Position numbers and translations under genes: made by a program. A stretch of 64,000 nucleotides of DNA from Trueperaceae bacterium (GTDB taxonomy: Bacteria; Deinococcota; Deinococci; Deinococcales; Trueperaceae), in the NCBI GenBank assembly GCA_965213705.1, contig OZ243913.1:3072001-3136000 (forward strand), in the 5' to 3' direction. How positions within the stretch are numbered: the first letter of the stretch is position 1; each line of letters opens with the position of its first letter. Positions 1-11,216 of this stretch are shown piece after piece. Under the pieces are notes generated by a model. The model was not told the DNA's origin and did not search any database. It saw nothing but the letters and a program-made list of their open reading frames with translations.

Positions 1-1361
1 AACGAAGAGCTGGTAAAGTTGCCCCAGGTGTGCCTGAACGCGCCCGACGCTTGCCCGACGACCGACACCTGCCCCAAAGGGCGCGTGCTGCCGCCGTTCC
101 CCGCTTTGTTGGGGTTGAAACCGGTTAAGTCGTCCCAGTAGACCGGCACACCGTAGAGGCTTTTGTCGGTGTTGACGCCGTAAATGGTCAAGCCGTTCTG
201 AGTACCGCCGCCGCTCGTCTCGGCGTCGCTGGCGACGAAGTGATACTCCCCGATGCGGCCCTGGACTTGGGCATGGTAAACGCCGTTCGGAAGTACAGCG
301 TTGCGGTTGTCACGCCCGTTCCAAACGACCGAATTAACGCCCGCCGCCATCGTGCCGAACAGGTACACGTCGTCCACTTCGCTGCCGTCCACGACGACGC
401 TGTTGCCGAACACCCCGTCCTGGTTGGCGTCGATGGTGATGAGGTAACGGCCCGGTACGTCGCTCGTAAACTTAAAGACCCCCGAGTCCTGCACCCCCGC
501 CGAGCTGCCGGGCGAAATGGTCTGGTCGACGCCGCTGTTGTCGGTAAAGGTGATGTCGGAAAGTTGGGGTGCCGAGGTGGGCGGCGGCAGCACGTTCACG
601 GGATAACCCAAGTAAATCGGATACTTTTCGCTCACGCTGTTGCCCGCCTGCGGCACGCTGTAGATAACGTTGGCGGCGTCCACCCCCTTGTCGTTCGCGA
701 CAAGGTCGTAGCCGTAGCCTGCAAAGTTGTTGAGGTCGAGCTGCCACACGAAGTTGGTGTTGGGCCGCCCGCCCGGCACGAGGATGTAGTAGTCGGCGTC
801 GGTCGACTTGTTTTCTGTAAACGCGCCCGCACTGTAAGCCCAGTTGTAAGCAAACACGCGCCCGGCGGCGAGTTTCGGGTTCGGCTTCGTCGCCGTGTTC
901 GGCGTCACCGTGATGTCGAAGCGGCTGAGAAGGTCTGAGGTGGCGTTGTATAGTCGCAACTGGTAAGTACCGGCAGGCAGACCCGAGGTACTGGGCGACC
1001 ACTTGAAGGCGGTGGGCGGGTCGAGTTCGGTCGGATAGGTCGTCGCCGAAAAGCCGCAGAAACCGGTCTGGGTTTCTTTGAGGGCGTTGGGCGACTTGTA
1101 GTGCAACGTTGCGCCGTTCGCACTCCTGACCTCGAAGTAGACGTTGTCGTTCGAGCTGCTGCCGCGCCCGCACAAAGACACGTTCACGACCTCGGTGGCC
1201 GAGGTGAAAACGACGTATTGAGGGTGGGTAGCGGTCGCGAAGTTGGCCGCCGAAGAGTCGTACTCGTAAAGAGCTTGGGTTAGGCCGACCTGCCATGACC
1301 CTTCGGAAAAAGTGGTAGCACCAAACATAAAGGCCAGCAGACCCAAGCAAACCCGTACCAT
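1..1361 (-). CDS. Secreted beta-rich surface protein, last visible gene of the DUF11 operon (runs off the window edge; possible adhesin with a FlgD-like Ig segment)
   Basis: Absent from the ORF track because it has no stop in the window. ATG at 1361 directly follows the TAA of the upstream gene. Open for 453 codons: MVRVCLGLLAFMFGATTFSEGSWQ...AGVNSVVWNGRDNRNAVLPNGVY...FRHTWGNFTSSS. Signal-peptide-like N-terminus; WNGRD..G.Y resembles the FlgD Ig motif. Confidence 0.8.
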   Translation of the reverse strand, partial: MVRVCLGLLAFMFGATTFSEGSWQVGLTQALYEYDSSAANFATATHPQYVVFTSATEVVNVSLCGRGSSSNDNVYFEVRSANGATLHYKSPNALKETQTGFCGFSATTYPTELDPPTAFKWSPSTSGLPAGTYQLRLYNATSDLLSRFDITVTPNTATKPNPKLAAGRVFAYNWAYSAGAFTENKSTDADYYILVPGGRPNTNFVWQLDLNNFAGYGYDLVANDKGVDAANVIYSVPQAGNSVSEKYPIYLGYPVNVLPPPTSAPQLSDITFTDNSGVDQTISPGSSAGVQDSGVFKFTSDVPGRYLITIDANQDGVFGNSVVVDGSEVDDVYLFGTMAAGVNSVVWNGRDNRNAVLPNGVYHAQVQGRIGEYHFVASDAETSGGGTQNGLTIYGVNTDKSLYGVPVYWDDLTGFNPNKAGNGGSTRPLGQVSVVGQASGAFRHTWGNFTSSS

Positions 1362-4300
1362 TTAGTTGCCACCCCCCGTCGGCGCGGCGCGGCCGCAGGT
1401 CCACTGCTCGTCGAACACCGCGTCGAGCCGCACGAACACGCCGCTGCCGCCGTAAACCGCGCCGTAGTCGCGGTCCAGACCGCCCAGGTTGTAACCCGCC
1501 ACGCCGTAAACGCCGCAACCGAGGCGCTGTGAGACTTCCAGACCGACGCCGAAAGCGCGCTCTTGGACAGTCCAGTCGTTGAAAAGCCGGGCTTGAACCA
1601 GCACGTTGCCGCCCTGCCAAGCGTAAAAGCCGCCACCCACGTTGACGAGGTCTAAGTAGTTCTCCCCGACCAGGTAGCGGTAGGCGTAGCCGAAGCGCAG
1701 GTCGTAGCGCTCGCCGAGCGTCCAAGTCGCTCGAGAGTCGCCCCACACGCTGTCGCCCTGTCCTATACTGCCCCGTCCTGTGCCGCCTCCCCGGGACAGC
1801 GCACCGAACTGGGCTTCGTTGTTCGTGAGCAGGGCGAGGCGTTTGCCCCGGTAAGCGCCCGCGACGCCGAAACTCGCGCCCGAGCCCTGGGCGCTGTCGT
1901 ACAGGTAAGTGCCGGTCACGCTGCCGTAGAGACGGTCCGACAGGGCAAAGGTGCTGCCGCCGACAACGACGTGCTTCGAGGCGGCCGGGTTCCAGGAGAC
2001 TTCATAACGGAGCGCCGCGTCCACTGTGTCGGTGTCGTAGTTCGCGCCGGCGCGCACCGCGACCTGCGTGTCGGTTTGCGCGCCGCCCTGTACGCCGTCC
2101 GCGCTGGACAAGCCGCGGCGGTACTCCGCGCCGAACTGCAGGCTCAGGGTTTCGCTCAGCGGCAACGTCGTGTCCAGACCGAGACGCACCCGCCCGGCCG
2201 CCGCGCTCACCCCGCCCGGAAGTTCGTACTGCGCGGTCACGGTGGTGCTGCCGCCGGACAAGTTGCCGAGTGCGCGCGACGGGTCCGCGCAGTTCAGGGT
2301 GCGGCACAGACTCGCCCGGACGCGGTCGTGTTGCAGGGTCGCCTCGAGCCCCAGCAACAACGCGTTACTGTCGCCCCACACCAGTTCGTCGCTGAGGGTG
2401 AGGCTCAAAAACTCGAGCAGGGGAAAAGCGGCGCTGAACTGGGTAACGCTGCGCGCGTCCGCGCCCAGGCCCTGGCGGTGAACGACGCCCAAGCGGCTCC
2501 CCTGCCAACCGAACAGGTCATAAAGGTTGCCGCCGACCAGTGGACGCAGCAAACCGCCTTCTAAATTCGCCCCGAACTGCAGGTCGAAGCCCTCACCCCG
2601 GTACAGCCCGAGCGCGTCGGCGCTCAAGTCGGTGTTGCCCGCCGTGGCCGACAAACTGGTGCGCGCCGCCACGCTGAAAGCCGAGGAAAACGCGTAGCTT
2701 GCGGCGGCCTCCAACGTGTGGCCTGCCGCTCCCAGCGCGGTCGGCGAGCGGTAACCTGCCGACACGAAGCGCCAACCGGCTTCGGCGTTGAGCGCGTCGG
2801 CGCTGTAGAGCAACCGGGTCGTGACGGCCACGCCGCCGGAACTTTCGCTGACGCCGTACGCGACTTCGGCGTCGGCGCGGACACCGCTACCCTCGTAACT
2901 CGCCCCGCCCGCCACGACGCGGTTGTAGCTGAGGTCGCTGCTCGTTTCCTGCGCCACGCCGAGCCGAAACTTGGCGCCGCCCAGCCCGACCTCGGCCTGC
3001 GCGCCCGCTTGCAAGTAGCGCGCCGCGTTGCCTGCGGCCAAGGTGTAGCTGAGCCGCAAATAGTAGACGTCGCCGCGGGCGTCTACGAGGGGTACGGGCT
3101 TGAAAAGCTCGAGCAGGCCCGTCTCTTCGTTTATCCGGAAGTCCTTCAGGGGCACCAGGACGCGGGTCACCGGGTCGAGGTCGTCCTCGGGCACGCTCAC
3201 GCCGAGGCCGTCTTTTTTGACAACCTCGACGCGCAGCGTGTTGGGCTCAATGGGCGCGTCCGGCACGAAGCGCAGACTTGTCCCGTCGCTTTTCAGGTCG
3301 ACGACGCGCATGTCGGTGACACCGTTGAAGGCCGCGTAAGCGCGCACGCCGAAGTCCACGCCCTCGTGCGCGCCCACATAGACGCCGCTCAGGCCGGTGT
3401 AGAACCGGCCCAGGTCGAGAAAGCCGCTCAGCGGCGTCGTAAAGTCGCCGTACTGAAGGTAACTCTCGTCGCGTTCCAACCGTGCGTAGACCCCTTGGCG
3501 GCTCTCGGCCCCGTAGCTGGCCGCGCCGCTGCTGCCGGGCACGGGAAAAGCTTGATAAGGATTGCTGTCGGCGGGTCCCAAATCGGCAAACGGGTAGCGC
3601 GCCGCCAGGGTCAACAAATAGTCGCCGAGAACGCGGCCTCGAGCGAAAAAGCTGCCGCCCACGCCGAACTCAAACCCCTCACCGTAAGCCGCCCCGACGC
3701 TGCCCGTCCCGCTCACAAGCCAGGGGCGCAAGTTGCTCGTCACCTTTACCGTCTGGCTTTGAAACGTTTCACCCACCAAGACCCTGAGGACGACCTCGGT
3801 GGGTTCGGCGAGGGGCGCGAGCTTTAAGCGCGCGTGGCCGGCCTTCGAGCGAAGCTGAAACCCGACCTCCTCGCTGGCGTCTGCCGAAGCTAGGCCCGCA
3901 CCCTCGACCTCCAGGGTGACGAACCCGTCCAGCGTCGCGTTGCCCCAGGCGTCGGTCACGACGAGGTCCAGCGCGAGCGGCGTGGCCGAGTCGGCGACGA
4001 GCGGCGTCAGGGGCGTGAGGGTAAACCCGGCGGCAGGGCCGGAAAAATAGACGGTGACGCTGTCGCTGACAACCTCGCCGTCCAGGGCGCTCTCGAGCCG
4101 CACCTCGTTCGGGCCGGGCTGCAAGGGCACGCCGACGAAGTCGTAGGTTTGACGGTTCAGGTTGGGGTCGAAGACGCGCTGACCGACGGTGTCAGCGGCG
4201 ACGGGTTCGCCGTTCACCGTAAGGGTCACCTCGCTGTTCAAGGGCGTGTCCGTGCTCACCGTGACGCGGTCGCGCTCGCGCAGCACCAACCCGGGGGCCG

Positions 4301-6383
4301 GCGCCAGGATGACCGCCCCGACACGCTCGCGGGCCACCATGTTCGTCGCCGGACCGCTCTCACTCGCTTCGGCACCATATTCAACACCGAGCGGTTCGGC
4401 GCGGGTGTACAGCTCGAGCGCGTCTTCGCTCCCCAGCAACACTTCGGGCTCGGGCGTAAGACCTACCAGGCTGCTGTGGTCTTTGCCGAGACCCAAAAGA
4501 CCCTCGTGCAACACGGTAAAGCTCACCTGGCCGACCGCCGCCCCCGGCAGTTCGAACACGAGCGCGTCGTCCACGCCCTGCGGGTCGGCTGCCACTCGGC
4601 CGTTGACCGTCGCGCTGCCCGCGACGTAGCTGGCCCCCGCCGGCAACCGCTCGACTAACACCAGGCCGTCCAGCACCGGCAGGTCGTAGGCGGCGACGTC
4701 GACCACCACGGTCGTCGTCTGGTGGGGTTGGGGCAGTTCGGGCAGGGTTTCGACTTTGAACTGCAACAAGCCACTCGAGCCCGCCGGGACACCCTCAAAA
4801 CCTACTGAGTCGCAGTAGGGCGTGACCTCGAGCAAGCCCGTCCCCTCGACCACGCCCCGCACGGTGAGGTTGGCGGTGGCGCTGGCGGCTGCGGGGAGGG
4901 TCAGCGTCCGGGGCGCGTCGACCACCTCCGAACGGCCGCTCCCCTGTACGCCCAAACCGACGGTGACAGGTACGTGGAGCGGGTTGGTGACGGTAAAGTG
5001 AAGCGTCGTTTCCTCGCCTACATAAACCGGGCCGGCTGGGGGCGTCACCTTGGTCGTAAAGTCGGCGCGCATCACGGTGTCCTCGGCGACTCGCTCGAGT
5101 CCCGTTCCGTCCAACACCCCGCGCAAGGTCACCAGGGGCGGCGCGGCGGGCGTGAGGGTGACGGTATAAGAAACCGCGGTCGTCGCCCCCGGCTCCAAAC
5201 TTCCTTGCCACACCAGGTCGTTGCCCGAAACTGTAGCGCCCTCTTGCGCGACGAGTTGCAAGCCCTCGGGCAGCGCTTCGCGCAGCAGGTAGTCCCCGGC
5301 CGCCGCGCCGCCGTTCGTGACGCTCAAGGTGACCGTCAGGGTCTGACAAGGCGCCAGCAGTTCAGAACTCAGGGCACGTGTGAACCCGAGTTTGGGTTGC
5401 GGCGAGACCGAGACCTCAACCTGTGGCAGCTCGACGGGGCGTTTGGGCGTCACGGCGGCGCTTGGAACTGGCAGCGGCAGCGGGCGTTTGGGCGTCACCG
5501 TCACTTCCAGCGTTGGTAACTCGACGGGTTTGAGCGGCGCGACGAGTTGCGCGGCGGGCGTCAGGGTGACGCGCTGCGCCGCGCCGCCGCAGCGCACGAC
5601 GAAGCGCACCGCGTTCGTTTTTTGATACCGCCCCGTGGGCAGCGCGAGTTGCACCGTGTACAGGCCGGGCAAGCGGGGCAGCGCCTGGCTGACCGAAGCG
5701 CGGTCGCCGGACACCGCGAGTTGCAAGGTCACGGGTTGCAGGGTTACGGGTTGCAGGGTTACAGGTTGAAGGGTGCCCGAGGGCAGGCGCAGGCGGGCCG
5801 ACAGTTCGCCACGTCCGTCGCCGTCGTACAGCTCGAGCGCGCAAGCCCGGTGGCCTGCAATGTCGAAACTGAACGCGTCCGTCCAGGCTTCGCTGCTCAC
5901 GTTCACGGTAACGCTTTCGGCTTGCAAAGTCACGTCCGCCAGTTCGGTCTCGAGCTTGAGCAAGTAGACGTTTTTGCCGTTGCCGGCGACCTCGCTCCGC
6001 AAGGTGTAGCTTCCGGCCGCGGCCGGGCCCTCGAAAAAGGTCAGCCACCTAGAAGCGCCCAGACTGAAGCGCTCGCTCCTCAGCGTCGCGACGGTGGCAG
6101 ACCCGCCCCTGGACAGGGTAAAAGCGGCCTCGAGCGGGGCGGCGTCATAATGTTCGTCGCCGGGCTCGTCGAGGTCGATGTTGGGAGAGTAGACCGAGAG
6201 CTTGACCCAGGAGCTTTGCGGTAGGTCGAACACGACTTCGTCGCCGTCGGGTGCCCAGCGTAAAACCGTGCCCGCCGTCACCAGCGGCAGGTGAGTTCCG
6301 GCAGCCTGCGGCGCGTTTTGCGCCCACGCAAACGTGCCGAACAAGCTCAGCAGAAACAGGTACTTCAAGACAAGGTGCTTCAT
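1362..6383 (-). CDS. Large (1673 aa) envelope protein with Ig/DUF11-like domains and a C-terminal outer-membrane beta-barrel-like region
   Basis: Likely start MKHLVLKYLFLLSLFGTFAWAQ (signal peptide), ATGA overlap with the upstream gene. DUF11-like segments (TLTVTLSVTN...LREALPEG; LVERLPAGASYVAGS). C-terminal part has alternating aromatic/Gly amphipathic strands. Confidence 0.8.
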   Translation of the reverse strand: MKHLVLKYLFLLSLFGTFAWAQNAPQAAGTHLPLVTAGTVLRWAPDGDEVVFDLPQSSWVKLSVYSPNIDLDEPGDEHYDAAPLEAAFTLSRGGSATVATLRSERFSLGASRWLTFFEGPAAAGSYTLRSEVAGNGKNVYLLKLETELADVTLQAESVTVNVSSEAWTDAFSFDIAGHRACALELYDGDGRGELSARLRLPSGTLQPVTLQPVTLQPVTLQLAVSGDRASVSQALPRLPGLYTVQLALPTGRYQKTNAVRFVVRCGGAAQRVTLTPAAQLVAPLKPVELPTLEVTVTPKRPLPLPVPSAAVTPKRPVELPQVEVSVSPQPKLGFTRALSSELLAPCQTLTVTLSVTNGGAAAGDYLLREALPEGLQLVAQEGATVSGNDLVWQGSLEPGATTAVSYTVTLTPAAPPLVTLRGVLDGTGLERVAEDTVMRADFTTKVTPPAGPVYVGEETTLHFTVTNPLHVPVTVGLGVQGSGRSEVVDAPRTLTLPAAASATANLTVRGVVEGTGLLEVTPYCDSVGFEGVPAGSSGLLQFKVETLPELPQPHQTTTVVVDVAAYDLPVLDGLVLVERLPAGASYVAGSATVNGRVAADPQGVDDALVFELPGAAVGQVSFTVLHEGLLGLGKDHSSLVGLTPEPEVLLGSEDALELYTRAEPLGVEYGAEASESGPATNMVARERVGAVILAPAPGLVLRERDRVTVSTDTPLNSEVTLTVNGEPVAADTVGQRVFDPNLNRQTYDFVGVPLQPGPNEVRLESALDGEVVSDSVTVYFSGPAAGFTLTPLTPLVADSATPLALDLVVTDAWGNATLDGFVTLEVEGAGLASADASEEVGFQLRSKAGHARLKLAPLAEPTEVVLRVLVGETFQSQTVKVTSNLRPWLVSGTGSVGAAYGEGFEFGVGGSFFARGRVLGDYLLTLAARYPFADLGPADSNPYQAFPVPGSSGAASYGAESRQGVYARLERDESYLQYGDFTTPLSGFLDLGRFYTGLSGVYVGAHEGVDFGVRAYAAFNGVTDMRVVDLKSDGTSLRFVPDAPIEPNTLRVEVVKKDGLGVSVPEDDLDPVTRVLVPLKDFRINEETGLLELFKPVPLVDARGDVYYLRLSYTLAAGNAARYLQAGAQAEVGLGGAKFRLGVAQETSSDLSYNRVVAGGASYEGSGVRADAEVAYGVSESSGGVAVTTRLLYSADALNAEAGWRFVSAGYRSPTALGAAGHTLEAAASYAFSSAFSVAARTSLSATAGNTDLSADALGLYRGEGFDLQFGANLEGGLLRPLVGGNLYDLFGWQGSRLGVVHRQGLGADARSVTQFSAAFPLLEFLSLTLSDELVWGDSNALLLGLEATLQHDRVRASLCRTLNCADPSRALGNLSGGSTTVTAQYELPGGVSAAAGRVRLGLDTTLPLSETLSLQFGAEYRRGLSSADGVQGGAQTDTQVAVRAGANYDTDTVDAALRYEVSWNPAASKHVVVGGSTFALSDRLYGSVTGTYLYDSAQGSGASFGVAGAYRGKRLALLTNNEAQFGALSRGGGTGRGSIGQGDSVWGDSRATWTLGERYDLRFGYAYRYLVGENYLDLVNVGGGFYAWQGGNVLVQARLFNDWTVQERAFGVGLEVSQRLGCGVYGVAGYNLGGLDRDYGAVYGGSGVFVRLDAVFDEQWTCGRAAPTGGGN

Positions 6384-7684
6384 CGGCGCACGTCCCAACT
6401 TAGTGTGGGCGCGGTGAGCAGCTTTTCGGGCGCGCCTGCAAACGCGACCCGGTAGCTGAGGGTGCGCGCGTAGCCCGCCGGAACGTCGCCGAGGGAGAGT
6501 TCGAGCCCCGCACCCGCCGGGGGTGTGCCGTCCGCGAACACCGGAGCCTCTAGCAAAATCGCTCCGGCGACAAGCGTCTCGCGCACGACCACGCCGCGCA
6601 GGGGTGCGCTCGAGCCGACCTGCAAGGTGACTAAAAATCCACCGGGTACGGGCTCGAGGCTTTTTTCGACCGCGAGCGGCCCCATCGCCACGTTCAACCT
6701 CTGCCGCACCGACAGCTCCGTCCGGGGCGGTTTGAAAGGAATGTCTCGCCGCGTGACGACGCCCGGCAGCAAGCGCACGCGCCACAGCCCCGCCTTGTCC
6801 TCGCCGACGCTCACCCCGAACAGCCGCGCGGGCGTGGTGCTGGTGTCGACCCGTAAGGCGGCCAGCGACGGCTCTACGTTTTGAAAGGTGTAACGCCCGA
6901 GTTCGTCGGTCACGGTTTCGCTGCCGTCGGACAGGTAAAGCCGCAAGTTGGGCACCGGGACGTCGTCAGCATCGTACAGGCCGTTCGCGTCCCGGTCGAC
7001 AAAGGCCGTACCGAGCAGCGCCGCGCGCTGCTCGAACAAACCCAGCTCGACGGGCGTCGTTGCCGTGTCCGCCGCGCCCGCCAGCACCAGGCCCGCACCG
7101 TCTTCGGCCAGGGCCTCGGCCCGGTTGACGAGGTCGGTCGCAAACAGGGCGGTAGGCAGCACGACGGCCTGAAAGGTGACCGTCACGACGTCGTTAGGAG
7201 CCAGGTCTACAAGCGTCCAGCGCAAGGTCGAACCGTCGACCTCGGCTTCCGCAGCGACGGTTGCGCCGTCCGGGCGCAGCACCCGGGCGCTGCCCGGAAC
7301 GTAGCGCAGCGCTGCGGGCAAGGTGTCGACGAGTTGTAACTTGCCGATGGACACGCTCTCGGGGTCGTTGGTGACCTGTAACTCGTAAGTCAGGGTGTCA
7401 CCGACGTTGACACGGCTCGGCACGGCGGTTTTTTGCAGGTCGATGAGGACGGGTTGAAAAGTCGTTACGACCTCGGGCGACAGGTCTTCGCGCTCGTCGC
7501 CGTTCCGCAGGTAGGTCGCGCGCGCCTGGTTGACGATTTTGTTGCCCGTCGGCTCAGCCGTTTGGTTGAAACCGGGCAGTGCGGGCGGGCGGGTCTCCGC
7601 GTCCTGGGCCGCCGCAAGGGTCAAGCCGGCCGACAGCAGGACGGGTAGCAGCGCGAGCAAGCTGCGGGAGACGACGGTGTACAT
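6380..7684 (-). CDS. DUF11 plus SdrD-B-like domain secreted protein (434 aa)
   Basis: ATG at 7684 after AGGAG; signal peptide; DLQKTA..VGDTLTYELQVTN..LVDTLP..LVNRAEA (DUF11); GTAFVDRDANGLYD..TDELGRYTF (SdrD-B-like). Confidence 0.85.
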   Translation of the reverse strand: MYTVVSRSLLALLPVLLSAGLTLAAAQDAETRPPALPGFNQTAEPTGNKIVNQARATYLRNGDEREDLSPEVVTTFQPVLIDLQKTAVPSRVNVGDTLTYELQVTNDPESVSIGKLQLVDTLPAALRYVPGSARVLRPDGATVAAEAEVDGSTLRWTLVDLAPNDVVTVTFQAVVLPTALFATDLVNRAEALAEDGAGLVLAGAADTATTPVELGLFEQRAALLGTAFVDRDANGLYDADDVPVPNLRLYLSDGSETVTDELGRYTFQNVEPSLAALRVDTSTTPARLFGVSVGEDKAGLWRVRLLPGVVTRRDIPFKPPRTELSVRQRLNVAMGPLAVEKSLEPVPGGFLVTLQVGSSAPLRGVVVRETLVAGAILLEAPVFADGTPPAGAGLELSLGDVPAGYARTLSYRVAFAGAPEKLLTAPTLSWDVRR

Positions 7685-7784
7685 GCTGTTACCTTTCTCC
7701 TTCCGGGGCAAACGAATCCGGCAAACAAAGCCTCAAATAGGTGGGTTGAGCGGGTAGTCCAATAGGGGTCACAAGCAAGATAGC

Positions 7785-7811
7785 GGCTCCGTCCCTGACA
7801 GGGACGGAGCC
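7785..7811 (-). terminator. Intra-operon stem-loop after the largest DUF11 gene
   Basis: GGCTCCGTCCCT-gac-AGGGACGGAGCC, perfect 12-bp stem about 10 nt past the stop; only a weak U-tract. Confidence 0.6.
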
Positions 7812-7821
7812 AAAGGCGTCG

Positions 7822-10605
7822 TTATTGCACTCGAACGACGAACACGAGGGTGATGGACTGGCCGGGCGTGAGCACGTCGGCGGTGGTGATGGTTCCGTCT
7901 TTGGTGGCCGGTGCCGTGTCCACACCGACGTAGATGCTCTGCCCGACGGTCAAGCTGGGCGCTGTAGAGGTCCAGGTCGAACCGTTCACCGAGTACAGCA
8001 CGGTACCGCCGGTCGCAGTCGTGGTCGCCGCGGCGGAGGTAAAGGTCGTGTAGCTCGGCAGCGGGTCGGACACCTTGACGTTGGTCAGGTTGCCCGAGCC
8101 GATGTTGGTGGCGACAACGGTGTACTCCAAATAGTCGCCGGGTTTGGCGGTCGCGCCGGAGGCGTCGAGCACTGCGCTAGCAGGACTGCACGTCGCGCTC
8201 GAGCAGGTCCGCACCGTCTTGACGAGCCTGAGTTCGCCCGACCTTACGAGGGTCCTGTCTTGCACGCTGGCCGTGGCCGTCGTGCCGCCCGGATAGGTTG
8301 CCGTCGCGGTCACGGTGACCGTCTCCTCAGCGCCGTCCGCTGCGCTGCCGGGCACGATGACGCGGACGTAAACCGTCCGGGACGCGCCCGCCGCAACGGT
8401 CACGCCGCTCAGCGACGAACTGAAGGTGTTGCCGTCAAGGGAGTACTGGTAGGTGAAAGCCTTGCCCGTCTGTTCCGGGATAGCCACGGTCGCGCTGGCG
8501 TTGCCGTTGTTGGTCAGGGTGTGGGTGTAGGTCACGACGCCGTTGGGCGAGGTGGTGGCGGTCTGGTTGGTGACAAAGGTGAGGGCGGTAACCGTGGTGA
8601 CCGTGACCGTCGTGGTGACGGAGTCAGTTCCGGTGCCGACCGGGTCGGTGGTGCTGGTAGCGGTAAAGGTGAGAGGGTTGTCGCCGGGTACAGCGCTGGC
8701 CGGAACGGTGACCTGGACGACGTAACAGGCTTTGGCACCGACGGCGAGCTGAGGCGTTTGGCTTACCGTGGGGCCGTTCGGGGCACCGGTGGCGCAGTCC
8801 GCTTGCACGAACACCGCGCTCCAACCCGCGGGCAGGTTCGGCACCGTGAGGTTGTAGCTGTCGGCCTGTTTGCCGTCGTTCAACACTTCGACCGGATAAG
8901 AAAGCGTCGTGCCGGGGGTGGTGCTCTGGTTGTCCGGGTTGTCGTTGGCATCGTTACGCGGGGATTCGCCACTAAACCCGCGCGTGGCGAGGTCGACGCT
9001 GTAGCCCTTGACGGGCGTGGGGACAACGTCTTTGGTGGCGTCGGTCGCCCCGCTCGAGGTCGAGGTGGCGGTCAGGGTGACGGTGGTACCCGCCGTGGCG
9101 CCGACCGGAACGGCGACCTTGACGACCACGTCTTGCGAAGCGCCCGGCGCGAGCGGCCCCAAGGTGCCGGACAGCGGGGTGACGCCGTCGGCCGCGTAAA
9201 GCGTCACGCTGTAGCCGTTGGCGCTGCTCGTGGTGGACAAGGTATAAGAACTGGTCGCGTTGCCGTTGTTGAGCACCGTGTGTCTGAAGGCCACGGTGTC
9301 GCCGGTATAGACGGGAACGGTGCTGGGGGCGGTAGCCGTCAGGGTTTGGGTGTCGGTATAGGGTGCGGCGGCGGTGTAACCGCCCGACAGGGTGACGGTC
9401 CAGGTTTTGCCCGTTGCCGGGTCGGTGTAAGTCGCGTTGCCCGACAGGGTGGGGTCGGCCGCTTTACCCGCAGGGCCGACGGCCACCCTGGCGTTTGCGT
9501 TGACCGTCACGCTGGTGGTGTTGGTGGGGGTCGTTTTGTTGGTGGCGGAGGTGGTGCCGGTAGCATAGGTGACGTTGGCGGTGTTGGTCACGGTCGTGTT
9601 GGCCGCCGCACCGGCAGCCACCGTGACGCTGAAGGTCATCGAGTAGTTCGTGCCTTGCGTAAAGAAAGCGCTTTTGGTGGGCGAGGTGGGATCGCGAATC
9701 ACGATACCGACGGCGTTGACGGTGCCCGTGGTGGGTACCGTGGTCGACCAAGTGGTGCCGTTGTTGGTCGAGTAAATAGGCTCAACCGCACCCTTGCCGG
9801 AGGTGCCGGACAGGCTGCCTGCAGTGAAGGTCTGGTTGGTGTTCAACACGTCGGTGACGATGATACCGACGCCCGTGAGACCGTAGCTCGAGAGGTCGAC
9901 GCCGTAAGCCGCCGAGCCGCCGTTGTTCGAACCCGCAACGGTGTAAGTAACGGTACCGCCCGCGGCGACCGTGCTCGTCGGGTTGGCCGTTTTGGTGGCG
10001 GTCAGGTTGCCCGCCGTGTTGACGACGGCCCTGGCCCAGTTGTTGGTGTCGGTGACGGCCGTGTTGCCGGCCGAGGTGCCGGTGATGTTTAGAAGCGCGT
10101 TTTGGTTGTTGGTGGCGGTGCCGGGCAAGGTACCCGCGACAATCAAACAGACTGAGGCATCTGCATTGAGGGTAACGCTTGTTACAACCGGGTCGCCCGC
10201 GACGCTGCCGTCACAACCCGCGTCCCGGTAGATGGTCACGCTGCTCAGGTCGAAATTGTCGGTCGTCGGCTGCACGTTTGCCAGGTTGAAGGTATCACTG
10301 CCGTTGCCGGTGTTGGTCAAAATATAGTTGAAATACACAGGTGCACCCGGCAGCGCGCTTTTGGTTTGGCCCGGCGCGGCTTCGGTGCCGTCGGGCGTGA
10401 TGGTGAGGCTGTAGACTTGCTGCACGATGGTAGTGACCGGGTTAGAGAACGTCGTCTTGGGCGTGCCCCCCGAGACGTAAGTCGCCGAGGCGGTGTTGGT
10501 TATCGGCGTGTCCTTGGGCGTGCCGGCGGCGAAAGCCAAACCGAACACGCTCAAAAAGAGGCCGAACAACGCGGTTCGGCTCGAGCGGTTGAAAGACGGG
10601 GTCAA
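7822..10605 (-). CDS. Thr-rich multi-domain DUF11/Ig-repeat secreted protein (about 927 aa), putative major fimbrial subunit
   Basis: TTG start 7 nt after GGAGG (alternative ATG at 10626); signal peptide ending AFA; repeated N.GN..D.(F/Y).L Ig motifs; DUF11 domains LTATKTA.. and LRLVKTV..VSDPLP. Confidence 0.88.
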   Translation of the reverse strand: MTPSFNRSSRTALFGLFLSVFGLAFAAGTPKDTPITNTASATYVSGGTPKTTFSNPVTTIVQQVYSLTITPDGTEAAPGQTKSALPGAPVYFNYILTNTGNGSDTFNLANVQPTTDNFDLSSVTIYRDAGCDGSVAGDPVVTSVTLNADASVCLIVAGTLPGTATNNQNALLNITGTSAGNTAVTDTNNWARAVVNTAGNLTATKTANPTSTVAAGGTVTYTVAGSNNGGSAAYGVDLSSYGLTGVGIIVTDVLNTNQTFTAGSLSGTSGKGAVEPIYSTNNGTTWSTTVPTTGTVNAVGIVIRDPTSPTKSAFFTQGTNYSMTFSVTVAAGAAANTTVTNTANVTYATGTTSATNKTTPTNTTSVTVNANARVAVGPAGKAADPTLSGNATYTDPATGKTWTVTLSGGYTAAAPYTDTQTLTATAPSTVPVYTGDTVAFRHTVLNNGNATSSYTLSTTSSANGYSVTLYAADGVTPLSGTLGPLAPGASQDVVVKVAVPVGATAGTTVTLTATSTSSGATDATKDVVPTPVKGYSVDLATRGFSGESPRNDANDNPDNQSTTPGTTLSYPVEVLNDGKQADSYNLTVPNLPAGWSAVFVQADCATGAPNGPTVSQTPQLAVGAKACYVVQVTVPASAVPGDNPLTFTATSTTDPVGTGTDSVTTTVTVTTVTALTFVTNQTATTSPNGVVTYTHTLTNNGNASATVAIPEQTGKAFTYQYSLDGNTFSSSLSGVTVAAGASRTVYVRVIVPGSAADGAEETVTVTATATYPGGTTATASVQDRTLVRSGELRLVKTVRTCSSATCSPASAVLDASGATAKPGDYLEYTVVATNIGSGNLTNVKVSDPLPSYTTFTSAAATTTATGGTVLYSVNGSTWTSTAPSLTVGQSIYVGVDTAPATKDGTITTADVLTPGQSITLVFVVRVQ

Positions 10606-10628
10606 AGTGTTACCTCCAAAAGACATCG

Positions 10629-11216
10629 TTAAAGAACCTCGACGCGGTAGACGAGGTTGTGTTGGGCGCCGGGCGGCAGCGCTTCTTGCAGGGTCCAGCG
10701 AACGCCTGTGTACTGGTCCGGGTTGGCGACGACTCGCTTCTGTTCGCCCGCTTCGTTGGTGACGGTCATCATGACGGGCGCGGCCATAAAGACGGGCGAG
10801 CCGTCGGCGGCAAGCTCGGCCGAAAACTCGGTCGTGACCAGGTCGCCGCCGCTCGCCGTGTCGGCCAAGTAGGCGGTGGTCGCAGGCACCGGCCCCGCCA
10901 CCACGACGGCGCCGGCCGGTAAGGTTTCGGCGCCGTCGTTGCGGACCAGAACCCGGTATTCGACCACTTGGCCGGGCCTGGCCTCGGCGGCGGCGGTGAA
11001 CGTCTCGGTCACGGTGCCGTCGTCCTGGGTAACGGTCGTTACTATGAACGCTTCCAACGTCACGGTGACCGGCTCGGCTTGGGCGGCGGCCCAGCCCGTC
11101 GCGGCCCAAGCCACTACCAGGGCGAACAAAAAGACCCACGTCGAACGCCCGACCCTGGAACTACTGACCCTGGAACCATCGACCCTAGAAATATCGACCC
11201 TGTGACTCTCGACCAT
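10629..11216 (-). CDS. Small secreted single-domain DUF11-like protein, first gene of the operon
   Basis: GAGGAGG upstream; hydrophobic signal peptide; ARPGQVVEYRVLVRN...VRWTL..LPPG...LVYRVEV. Confidence 0.85.
   Translation of the reverse strand: MVESHRVDISRVDGSRVSSSRVGRSTWVFLFALVVAWAATGWAAAQAEPVTVTLEAFIVTTVTQDDGTVTETFTAAAEARPGQVVEYRVLVRNDGAETLPAGAVVVAGPVPATTAYLADTASGGDLVTTEFSAELAADGSPVFMAAPVMMTVTNEAGEQKRVVANPDQYTGVRWTLQEALPPGAQHNLVYRVEVL

Follow-up and report, generated by a model that had tools for sequence, protein, structure and literature searches.

A DUF11/CLIPPER domain split between the two ends of a secreted protein suggests head-to-tail, probably covalent fibre assembly by a five-gene operon of a Trueperaceae bacterium

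How might large secreted proteins of a bacterium with two membranes be joined into a surface fibre when neither a sortase nor an usher seems to be at hand? This question is raised by five genes (g1 to g5) at positions 1–11216 of the window, which is the whole 64,000-nt stretch of a Trueperaceae bacterium analysed here (GenBank assembly GCA_965213705.1, contig OZ243913.1, positions 3,072,001 to 3,136,000 of the forward strand). The largest part of the argument concerns g2, a 934-aa protein that ends in an incomplete DUF11 domain whose lacking strand segments, the one with the Asn included, sit at the mature N-terminus of the same protein. A prediction made from the DNA letters only (hereafter, the original prediction) had proposed that such N-terminal strands complete the C-terminal domain of a neighbouring subunit. 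Following this up, we consider it probable that subunits with split DUF11/CLIPPER domains join head-to-tail, likely locked by Lys-Asn bonds, into a fibre that is likely held by a giant β-barrel protein encoded in the same operon.

The evidence for the split comes from comparison of the two ends of g2 with a complete domain of the same protein. After its signal peptide, g2 (positions 7822–10626, minus strand) starts with donor strands; about seven to eight immunoglobulin (Ig)-like domains follow, one of them a complete DUF11, and the C-terminus is a truncated DUF11. It was aligned with 69 homologues picked from 120 listed (n = 70, 32–95% identity, MAFFT), and a reference hidden Markov model (HMM) of 168 positions was built from the 70 sequences on the complete internal DUF11/CLIPPER domain (residues 203–376 of g2, positions 9499–10020, minus strand; HMM 2–168, E 1e-53). 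Throughout, counts across related genomes are not independent of one another. The C-terminal domains of all 70 proteins matched the model from about position 10 and ended at a median position of 128 (range 81–129), and the 42-residue mature N-terminus matched from positions 130–133 to 165–168, again in 70/70 and each time with E < 1e-3. In the window, the C-terminal acceptor (residues 795–934, positions 7825–8244, minus strand) is a DUF11 without its last four strand segments that ends in ...ITLVFVVRVQ before the stop codon. The donor segment (residues 34–70, positions 10417–10527, minus strand; AGTPKDTPITNTASATY...SNPVTTIV) directly follows the predicted signal peptide cleavage site, between AFA and AG, and corresponds to HMM positions 130–167. 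Since the two matches do not overlap, the ends of g2 are two parts of one domain. The same boundary was found at 20/20 fetched loci, in which the match of the g2 orthologue ends at 128–129 on the last residues of the protein, and the Pfam DUF11 profile covers only its positions 8–94 of 114 on residues 815–909 of g2. In the solved CLIPPER domain, which spans residues 712–812, the Asn is residue 806 (PMC12617251), and this position falls just past the point where g2 ends. When g2 and its internal domain were each compared with the PDB sequences by phmmer, no CLIPPER entry came up, and the best matches were unrelated proteins (E 0.67 and 0.1).

Structure prediction gave a picture in line with this division. 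AlphaFold2 (AF2) folded g2 into a row of Ig-like domains (mean predicted local distance difference test, pLDDT, 89.9; predicted template modelling score, pTM, 0.49), and Foldseek matched the whole model to generic multi-Ig chains only. Four strand pieces were predicted in the donor (residues 41–44, 47–52, 55–60 and 64–68; block-mean pLDDT of at least 90), mirroring the last four of the internal domain (345–348, 350–355, 363–367 and 371–375). The first domain of g2 has a full strand set of its own in the model, and nowhere is the protein better conserved than in its N-terminal segment. The original prediction was right that the C-terminal DUF11 stops before the Asn strands and that these sit at the mature N-terminus; the motifs it quoted lie at the positions it gave (donor at 10417–10527, Lys codon at 8218–8220, Asp codon at 8065–8067), and the conservation of the split, which it had proposed to check, extends to all 70 homologues. 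Its length for the main protein, 927 aa, had to be corrected to 934 aa: the 927-aa reading opens at a Leu codon seven codons in, and the ATG at 10626, 2 nt past the g1 stop, gives a start (MSFGGN) that is also present in a 95%-identical homologue (P0001).

Three residues of the two separated parts would together make up a Lys-Asp-Asn triad, namely the putative isopeptide Asn of the donor, N44 (positions 10495–10497), and K803 (8218–8220) and D854 (8065–8067) of the acceptor, all on the minus strand. Each of them was found in 70/70 sequences, so that the conservation of the K/D/N residues anticipated by the original prediction is complete in this set; the intramolecular triad of the internal domain was less conserved (K212 in 61/70, D259 in 67/70 and N348 in 67/70). 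With hmmalign, N44 fell in the internal Asn column in 70/70 and D854 in the internal Asp column in 69/70. Around N44, residues at alternate positions are maintained: I42 (69/70), N44, A46 (69/70), A48 (67/70) and Y50 (68/70) are each kept in at least 67/70, whereas positions 43, 45, 47 and 49 vary; further on, S61 (70/70) and N62 (69/70) are also conserved. Such an alternation would be expected if one face of the strand were buried in a domain core. We also asked where a triad lies within one domain of one chain. This is the case for the internal domain of g2 (K212-D259-N348) and for g3 (K85, D120 and N187); g2 and g5 have no such triad in their C-terminal domains, which end before the Asn strand. 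Judged from residue conservation, a Lys-Asn isopeptide bond across subunits is likely. After the acceptor Lys strand, the window's g2 carries a Cys-containing insertion, RTCSSATC (window 8170–8215, g2 residues ∼805–820), in a region that is variable in the family.

If g2 could only close on itself, half domains would not be expected on other chains of the operon, and three of its proteins carry one half each. g3 (positions 6380–7684, minus strand; 434 aa) is a donor-only subunit. Its donor strands (residues 44–77, positions 7454–7555, minus strand; IVNQARATY...SPEVVTTF, with N52 at 7529–7531) matched HMM positions 132–159 on residues 44–74 (E 0.018), a weaker match than that of g2, and have buried residues in common with the g2 donor (I/V-x-N-x-A ... 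S-N/P-x-V-x-T). A donor motif after the signal peptide was present in the protein following g2 at 16/20 loci with a strict regular expression and at 19/20 by eye, L018 being ambiguous. The rest of g3 consists of a signal peptide, a self-complete DUF11 (K85, D120 and N187; Pfam DUF11 over residues 82–192, 43.3 bits), an SdrD_B-like domain and a last Ig-like domain, with no truncated acceptor; it also matched TIGR04226, the isopeptide-forming fimbrial D2 domain, with 31.6 bits (cut-off 30), which is a relation at the domain level only. We regard g3 as a candidate for the role of terminator, or of adaptor to the barrel. Orthologues of g3 close on a conserved ...LTDPEVRWRYP, in the window copy (6380–6480) ...LLTAPTLSWDVRR, and in the fused proteins described below this motif precedes the g4 part; it may be a contact with the barrel protein.

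The opposite half is found in g5 and g1. g5 (positions 1–1361 of the window, minus strand) has 622 aa in the genome (L004:11493–13361), residues 454–622 lying beyond the window. It has a signal peptide, ∼480 aa with no assigned domain other than one FlgD_ig match, a C-terminal truncated DUF11 and no donor motif. The acceptor contains K491 (in LELVKEV) and D534 (in LTDALP) and ends in ...YVQFRVKIQ, and the same-genus orthologue retains VELVKEV, LTDPLP and the terminal FRVKIQ. Because the HMM match is weak (positions 41–128 on residues 518–621 of 622, E 0.034, score 2.7), the assignment is based mainly on these motifs and on their retention by the same-genus orthologue. g5 may be the tip subunit and bear a putative binding region; the N-terminal part gave only unnamed clusters in the ESM Atlas. 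g1 (positions 10629–11216, minus strand; 195 aa) is a secreted protein with a single DUF11-like acceptor domain (residues 68–194, about 10635–11015, minus strand) that matches HMM positions 7–128 and ends at the same strand as g2. In the alignment of orthologues it has no donor and no conserved Lys or Asp at the triad positions. Our guess is that g1 is a non-covalent cap for the free donor strand, or a (perhaps temporary) holder of donor strands. In the ATG-initiated open reading frame (ORF) of g1, ∼25 residues (MVESHRVDISRVDGSRVSSSRVGRS) precede the hydrophobic signal core, and the same-genus orthologue differs here; the true start may lie further inside. Of the division of roles in the original prediction, the orphan N-terminal strand of the 434-aa protein and the tip-like last gene, with an acceptor and no donor, have stood, and the acceptor-only role of g1 and the donor-only nature of g3 had been missed. 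Since g1, g5 and g3 carry one half each, these proteins could be completed only in trans, and this is our main argument against self-closure of g2.

The acceptor end of such a fibre would have to be held at the cell surface, and g4 (positions 1362–6383, minus strand; 1673 aa) offers a plausible anchor. The N-terminal half of g4 contains DUF11-like Ig domains. AF2 of residues 690–1673 with 40 homologues (pLDDT 83.6, pTM 0.73) placed two Ig-like domains at residues 690–882 (positions 3738–4316, minus strand), followed by a β-barrel region at residues 887–1657 (positions 1413–3725, minus strand) with ∼40 long strands, as counted from the DSSP list. Foldseek of this part of the protein returned LptD, Deinococcus radiodurans SlpA, the FimD usher, SprA and TonB-dependent receptors (E ∼1e-6 to 1e-7, template modelling score ≤0.32). 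VIA-align gave a porin with Z 14.0 (root-mean-square deviation, rmsd, 6.0; 227 residues aligned), the PapC pore with Z 14.0 (rmsd 8.3, 263 aligned) and the SlpA complex with Z 11.7 (419 aligned), porins in general reaching Z 12–14 over model residues 198–968. Pfam Porin_4 is present in two g4 homologues, and the ESM Atlas returned only unnamed clusters for the barrel part. AF2, Foldseek and VIA-align thus agree on an outer-membrane β-barrel, and g4, which the original prediction had already called a barrel, is predicted to end in a very large one. Its likeness to PapC is that of barrels in general, tied with porins, and implies no membership of the usher family. The ∼40 strands are more than those of the matched ushers, LptD or SlpA; should they all belong to one barrel, few known outer-membrane barrels would be as large.

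The arrangement is not confined to the window. Of 8000 candidates scored, 520 matched the g2 family at E ≤ 1e-5, one of them labelled Candidatus Eisenbacteria by its source, and g2-like proteins were present in 175/301 Deinococcota genomes sampled (E ≤ 1e-10). Fetching of 20 g2 loci from different genera of the phylum showed g2 followed by a g3-like and then a g4-like protein in all 20, with a g1-like gene directly upstream of g2 in 15/20. A comparable order occurs in Moraxella osloensis (Pseudomonadota), where a 158-aa g1-like protein is followed by a 909-aa g2-like protein and by a 1593-aa fusion (L026:12917–17698) that starts with a signal peptide and donor motif and continues with g3-like and g4-like sequence. 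Two Deinococcota loci encode g3-g4 fusions as well, of 1776 aa (L011:4671–9998) and 2742 aa (L020:4406–12631). The conservation of gene order that was to be checked in homologous operons is hence found for g1-g2-g3-g4 across Deinococcota and in Moraxella. We read a barrel protein that carries a donor strand as a barrel that would anchor the acceptor end of the fibre. The first 688 residues of the window's g4 have no counterpart in the g3-g4 fusions.

The end of the operon is more variable. g5 itself was found only in the same-genus genome, and in L016 and L018 proteins that end in an acceptor with Lys and Asp are encoded downstream of the barrel. In loci of the Thermus/Meiothermus type, the gene after the barrel encodes a different large DUF11 protein that is not a g5 homologue (996 aa in T. 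thermophilus HB8, TTH_RS10925); it was located at L021:12029–14158, L007:12089–14176 and L019:12139–14232 and as the end ORFs of L008, L022 and L023, with the C-terminus beyond the fetched stretches. A search below 512 residues gave 12 short proteins with an acceptor domain, which were taken for fragments, at least three being labelled partial and most lying on short contigs; no minimal pilin with an acceptor domain was found among these 12 matches.

Taken together, these findings suggest the following mechanism. After Sec export, the donor of an incoming g2 would insert into the open C-terminal domain of the previously added subunit. K803 and D854 of the acceptor would rebuild a CnaA-type triad with N44 of the donor, and the bond would form with loss of ammonia. 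The free donor of the distal g2 would be taken up by an acceptor-only protein, either g5 (covalently, as the tip) or g1 (non-covalently), and donor-only g3 would fill the last acceptor, upon which growth would end. g3 would be attached to the g4 barrel, or would be part of it in other genomes, and the barrel would anchor the fibre and may serve as its conduit across the outer membrane. We favour this head-to-tail assembly because the split is complementary in 70/70 sequences at 32–95% identity, because N44, K803 and D854 are invariant and exceed the internal triad in conservation, and because orphan donor and acceptor parts need complementation in trans. The alternating conservation along the donor strand, the conserved gene order, the fusion of g3 to the barrel and the size of the g4 barrel are further reasons, as are the absence of sortase and usher matches from the 98%-complete genome and the fact that the intramolecular chemistry of DUF11/CLIPPER domains and a trans Asn-Lys lock in BsaA are established.

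Several results weigh against this assembly. No chaperone-like protein that would keep an open acceptor soluble in the periplasm was identified, and no experimental data on the g2 family were found in the literature searched. The high confidence of the donor strands in the AF2 monomer is compatible with docking on their own chain. K803 fell in the internal Lys column in only 24/70 sequences with hmmalign; this misalignment is explained by a variable insertion after the first strand, since the variability of g2 residues ∼805–820 disturbs the HMM alignment, and the equivalence of K803 rests on the common L-x-L-x-K first-strand motif and on its invariance in the MAFFT alignment. As g1 lacks the Lys and the Asp, the fibre would have one or more non-covalent junctions. 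The ∼40 strands of g4 may form one barrel or two. Finally, no RNA sequencing run is listed as containing the locus.

Of the other explanations, the least unlikely is a stalk of defined length, in which complementation would take place only between different proteins (the g2 donor with g1 or g5, the g3 donor with g2) and a tip-g2-g3-barrel adhesin of about three subunits would be built with no polymerisation of g2. Each end of g2 does have a dedicated heterologous partner in the operon, g2 is by itself a long rod with some eight Ig domains, and the donor sequences of g2 and g3 differ in ways that could encode specificity; nevertheless, the donor and the acceptor of g2 match one and the same DUF11 profile with no visible bar to self-addition, and the buried residues are common to both donors. 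We therefore judge such a stalk unlikely, while keeping it as the foremost competitor. Complementation might also be purely non-covalent, with Lys, Asp and Asn kept for packing or hydrogen bonding. In favour of this are the g1 acceptor, which has neither the Lys nor the Asp, the existence of DUF11 domains that lack the bond, according to the CLIPPER survey (PMC12617251), and the report, in the BsaA study, that N35A oligomers lacking the bond are stable until heated (PMC11580942). Yet all three residues are retained in every homologue down to 32% identity, more strictly than the triad of the internal domain, and stand at columns homologous to the proven K...D...N order, which makes a bond-free fibre rather improbable.

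Closure in cis, by which the N-terminal strands of g2 would complete its own C-terminal domain to give a ring or hairpin monomer, is suggested by the presence of donor and acceptor on one chain and by the well-predicted N-terminal strands of the monomer model, which would fit self-docking. Against it stand about seven Ig domains between the two ends of g2, the half-carriers g1, g5 and g3, which could be completed only in trans, and the Moraxella locus and two Deinococcota loci, where the donor is borne by a barrel protein that has no such acceptor at its end; we hold this closure to be distinctly improbable. One could even deny any functional split and see in the C-terminus a short Ig variant, in the N-terminus a segment of the first domain, and in the whole a set of independent surface adhesins or S-layer-associated proteins beside a porin. 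Tandem DUF11 proteins are common as monomeric fibrillar adhesins, as stated in the survey (PMC12617251), and the g4 barrel does not resemble a pilus usher in any specific way. However, the pieces match complementary, non-overlapping parts of the profile in 70/70, the first domain of g2 has its own full strand set in the model, and no stretch of g2 is better conserved than the N-terminal segment. This last explanation appears to us extremely improbable, and head-to-tail joining of split domains stays the preferred one.

The five genes are co-oriented on the minus strand, fill window positions 1–11216 and are closely spaced: g1 and g2 are 2 nt apart, g2 and g3 137 nt, g3 and g4 overlap by 4 nt (ATGA), and g4 and g5 adjoin with 0 nt between them. 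All five products begin, as far as their translations can be judged by eye, with a signal peptide of the Sec type. The original prediction of a tightly coupled five-gene operon of secreted proteins agrees with these gaps and signal peptides. The flanking genes encode an ABC transporter and a GFO/IDH oxidoreductase and are unrelated, so that the unit consists of five genes. Scans for promoters and terminators at both ends of the operon gave nothing usable above shuffle expectation. Pfam DUF11 (PF01345, cut-off 24.6 bits) was matched by g2 (49.4), g3 (43.3) and g4 (25.8), with g1 just under the cut-off (22.5), and TIGR01451 of NCBIfam was also matched among the operon proteins.

Does this operon belong to a known type of fibre? 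No description of a split or intermolecular DUF11/CLIPPER fibre was found in the full-text literature searched, whose coverage leaves most subscription journals outside. Somewhat short of an even chance, and so only tentatively, we propose that the operon stands for a way of making pili that is undescribed yet widespread among diderm bacteria. It would be a 'Tag/Catcher' fibre of natural origin: with one CnaA-type isopeptide domain split over the two ends of each subunit, folding, polymerisation and covalent locking would be one autocatalytic step with no sortase, chaperone or usher. The fibre would be terminated by a donor strand that is part of, or fused with, a ∼40-stranded outer-membrane barrel with room for folded Ig domains to pass. 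If true, this would be a further route to surface fibres in double-membraned bacteria, covalent and yet enzyme-free, that joins the logic of chaperone-usher assembly to Gram-positive pilin chemistry. In that case the large family of ∼900-aa 'DUF11 repeat' proteins would also gain a function, giant barrel proteins of unknown role would be explained, and the versions in Thermus and Meiothermus would supply ready heat-stable protein-ligation pairs for biotechnology.

In architecture, the operon resembles chaperone-usher pili. These are built from FimH or PapG through FimA or PapA to PapH at the usher, with addition at the base, and the usher barrel has 24 strands. They have an acceptor-only tip, a shaft with donor and acceptor, a donor-only terminator and an outer-membrane barrel encoded in the same operon, and an N-terminal donor completes the Ig fold of the previous subunit; the five genes would provide the same set of roles, with addition likewise at the base. 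The operon differs from these pili in its unrelated proteins, in subunits about five times larger, in a donated piece of ∼37 residues in four segments instead of one strand, in the predicted covalent lock and in the ∼40 strands of its barrel. No match to Usher (PF00577) was found in the organism's own genome (98% complete), with the E. coli control matching, and none of the five operon proteins matched an usher or PapD-like chaperone family in Pfam. As for sortase-dependent pili, PF04203 had no match in the same genome and matches in 3/14 control genomes, and there is no C-terminal sorting signal at the g2 end (...VFVVRVQ); the sortase independence that had been predicted is consistent with both results. 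In the SpyTag/SpyCatcher pair, which was made in the laboratory from domains of Gram-positive adhesins, a tag strand with one bond partner and a truncated Ig-like domain with the other two reconstitute and ligate spontaneously; DogTag/DogCatcher is an engineered split isopeptide pair of the same type. Unlike these pairs, the split in the operon would be natural, would serve polymerisation and would occur in thermophiles (Thermus, Meiothermus).

The chemistry proposed for the operon is that of CLIPPER domains. DUF11/CLIPPER domains form an autocatalytic intramolecular Lys-Asp-Asn bond, which in PDB 9IFR involves K715, D748 and N806, according to the survey (PMC12617251). g2 shares with them the Pfam family and the K...D...N order, and two domains, the internal one of g2 and the first one of g3, look like ordinary, self-contained members. 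Unlike CLIPPER as described in the survey, with its triad in one domain of one chain, the last domain of g2 has its Asn strands relocated to the opposite terminus of the chain. The text of the survey makes no mention of a split or intermolecular DUF11; 'intermolecular' occurs in it five times, in unrelated contexts. A resemblance by mechanism only is seen with the head-to-tail threads of an archaeal thermophile (Saci_0406), which are described as combining donor-strand complementation with a sortase-independent isopeptide bond that links the N-terminal amine, on Asp24, to Asn57 of subunit n+2 (PMC9715654). As described there, these threads are archaeal and, in contrast to the operon, have no Lys-Asp-Asn triad, no Pfam domain and no outer membrane.

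The closest mechanistic precedent is BsaA of Clostridium perfringens, which joins donor-strand exchange to an Asn-Glu-Lys lock. There, an N-terminal segment inserts as a strand into the Ig-like sheet of the neighbour, N35 of the donor is bonded to K74 of the acceptor with catalysis by E56 of the acceptor and with no sortase, and Ala substitutions abolish the oligomers (PMC11580942). BsaA belongs to another fold family: of the operon proteins only g1 matched the TasA/BsaA family (TIGR04090), with 15.7 bits against a cut-off of 60. BsaA, from a monoderm, is small, consists of a single domain and depends on SipW and type IV pili, and the operon contains no signal peptidase gene. What sets the operon apart from BsaA is, in sum, a ∼900-aa multi-domain rod in a diderm, a DUF11 domain split so that four strand segments would be donated, candidate tip and terminator proteins, and a barrel.

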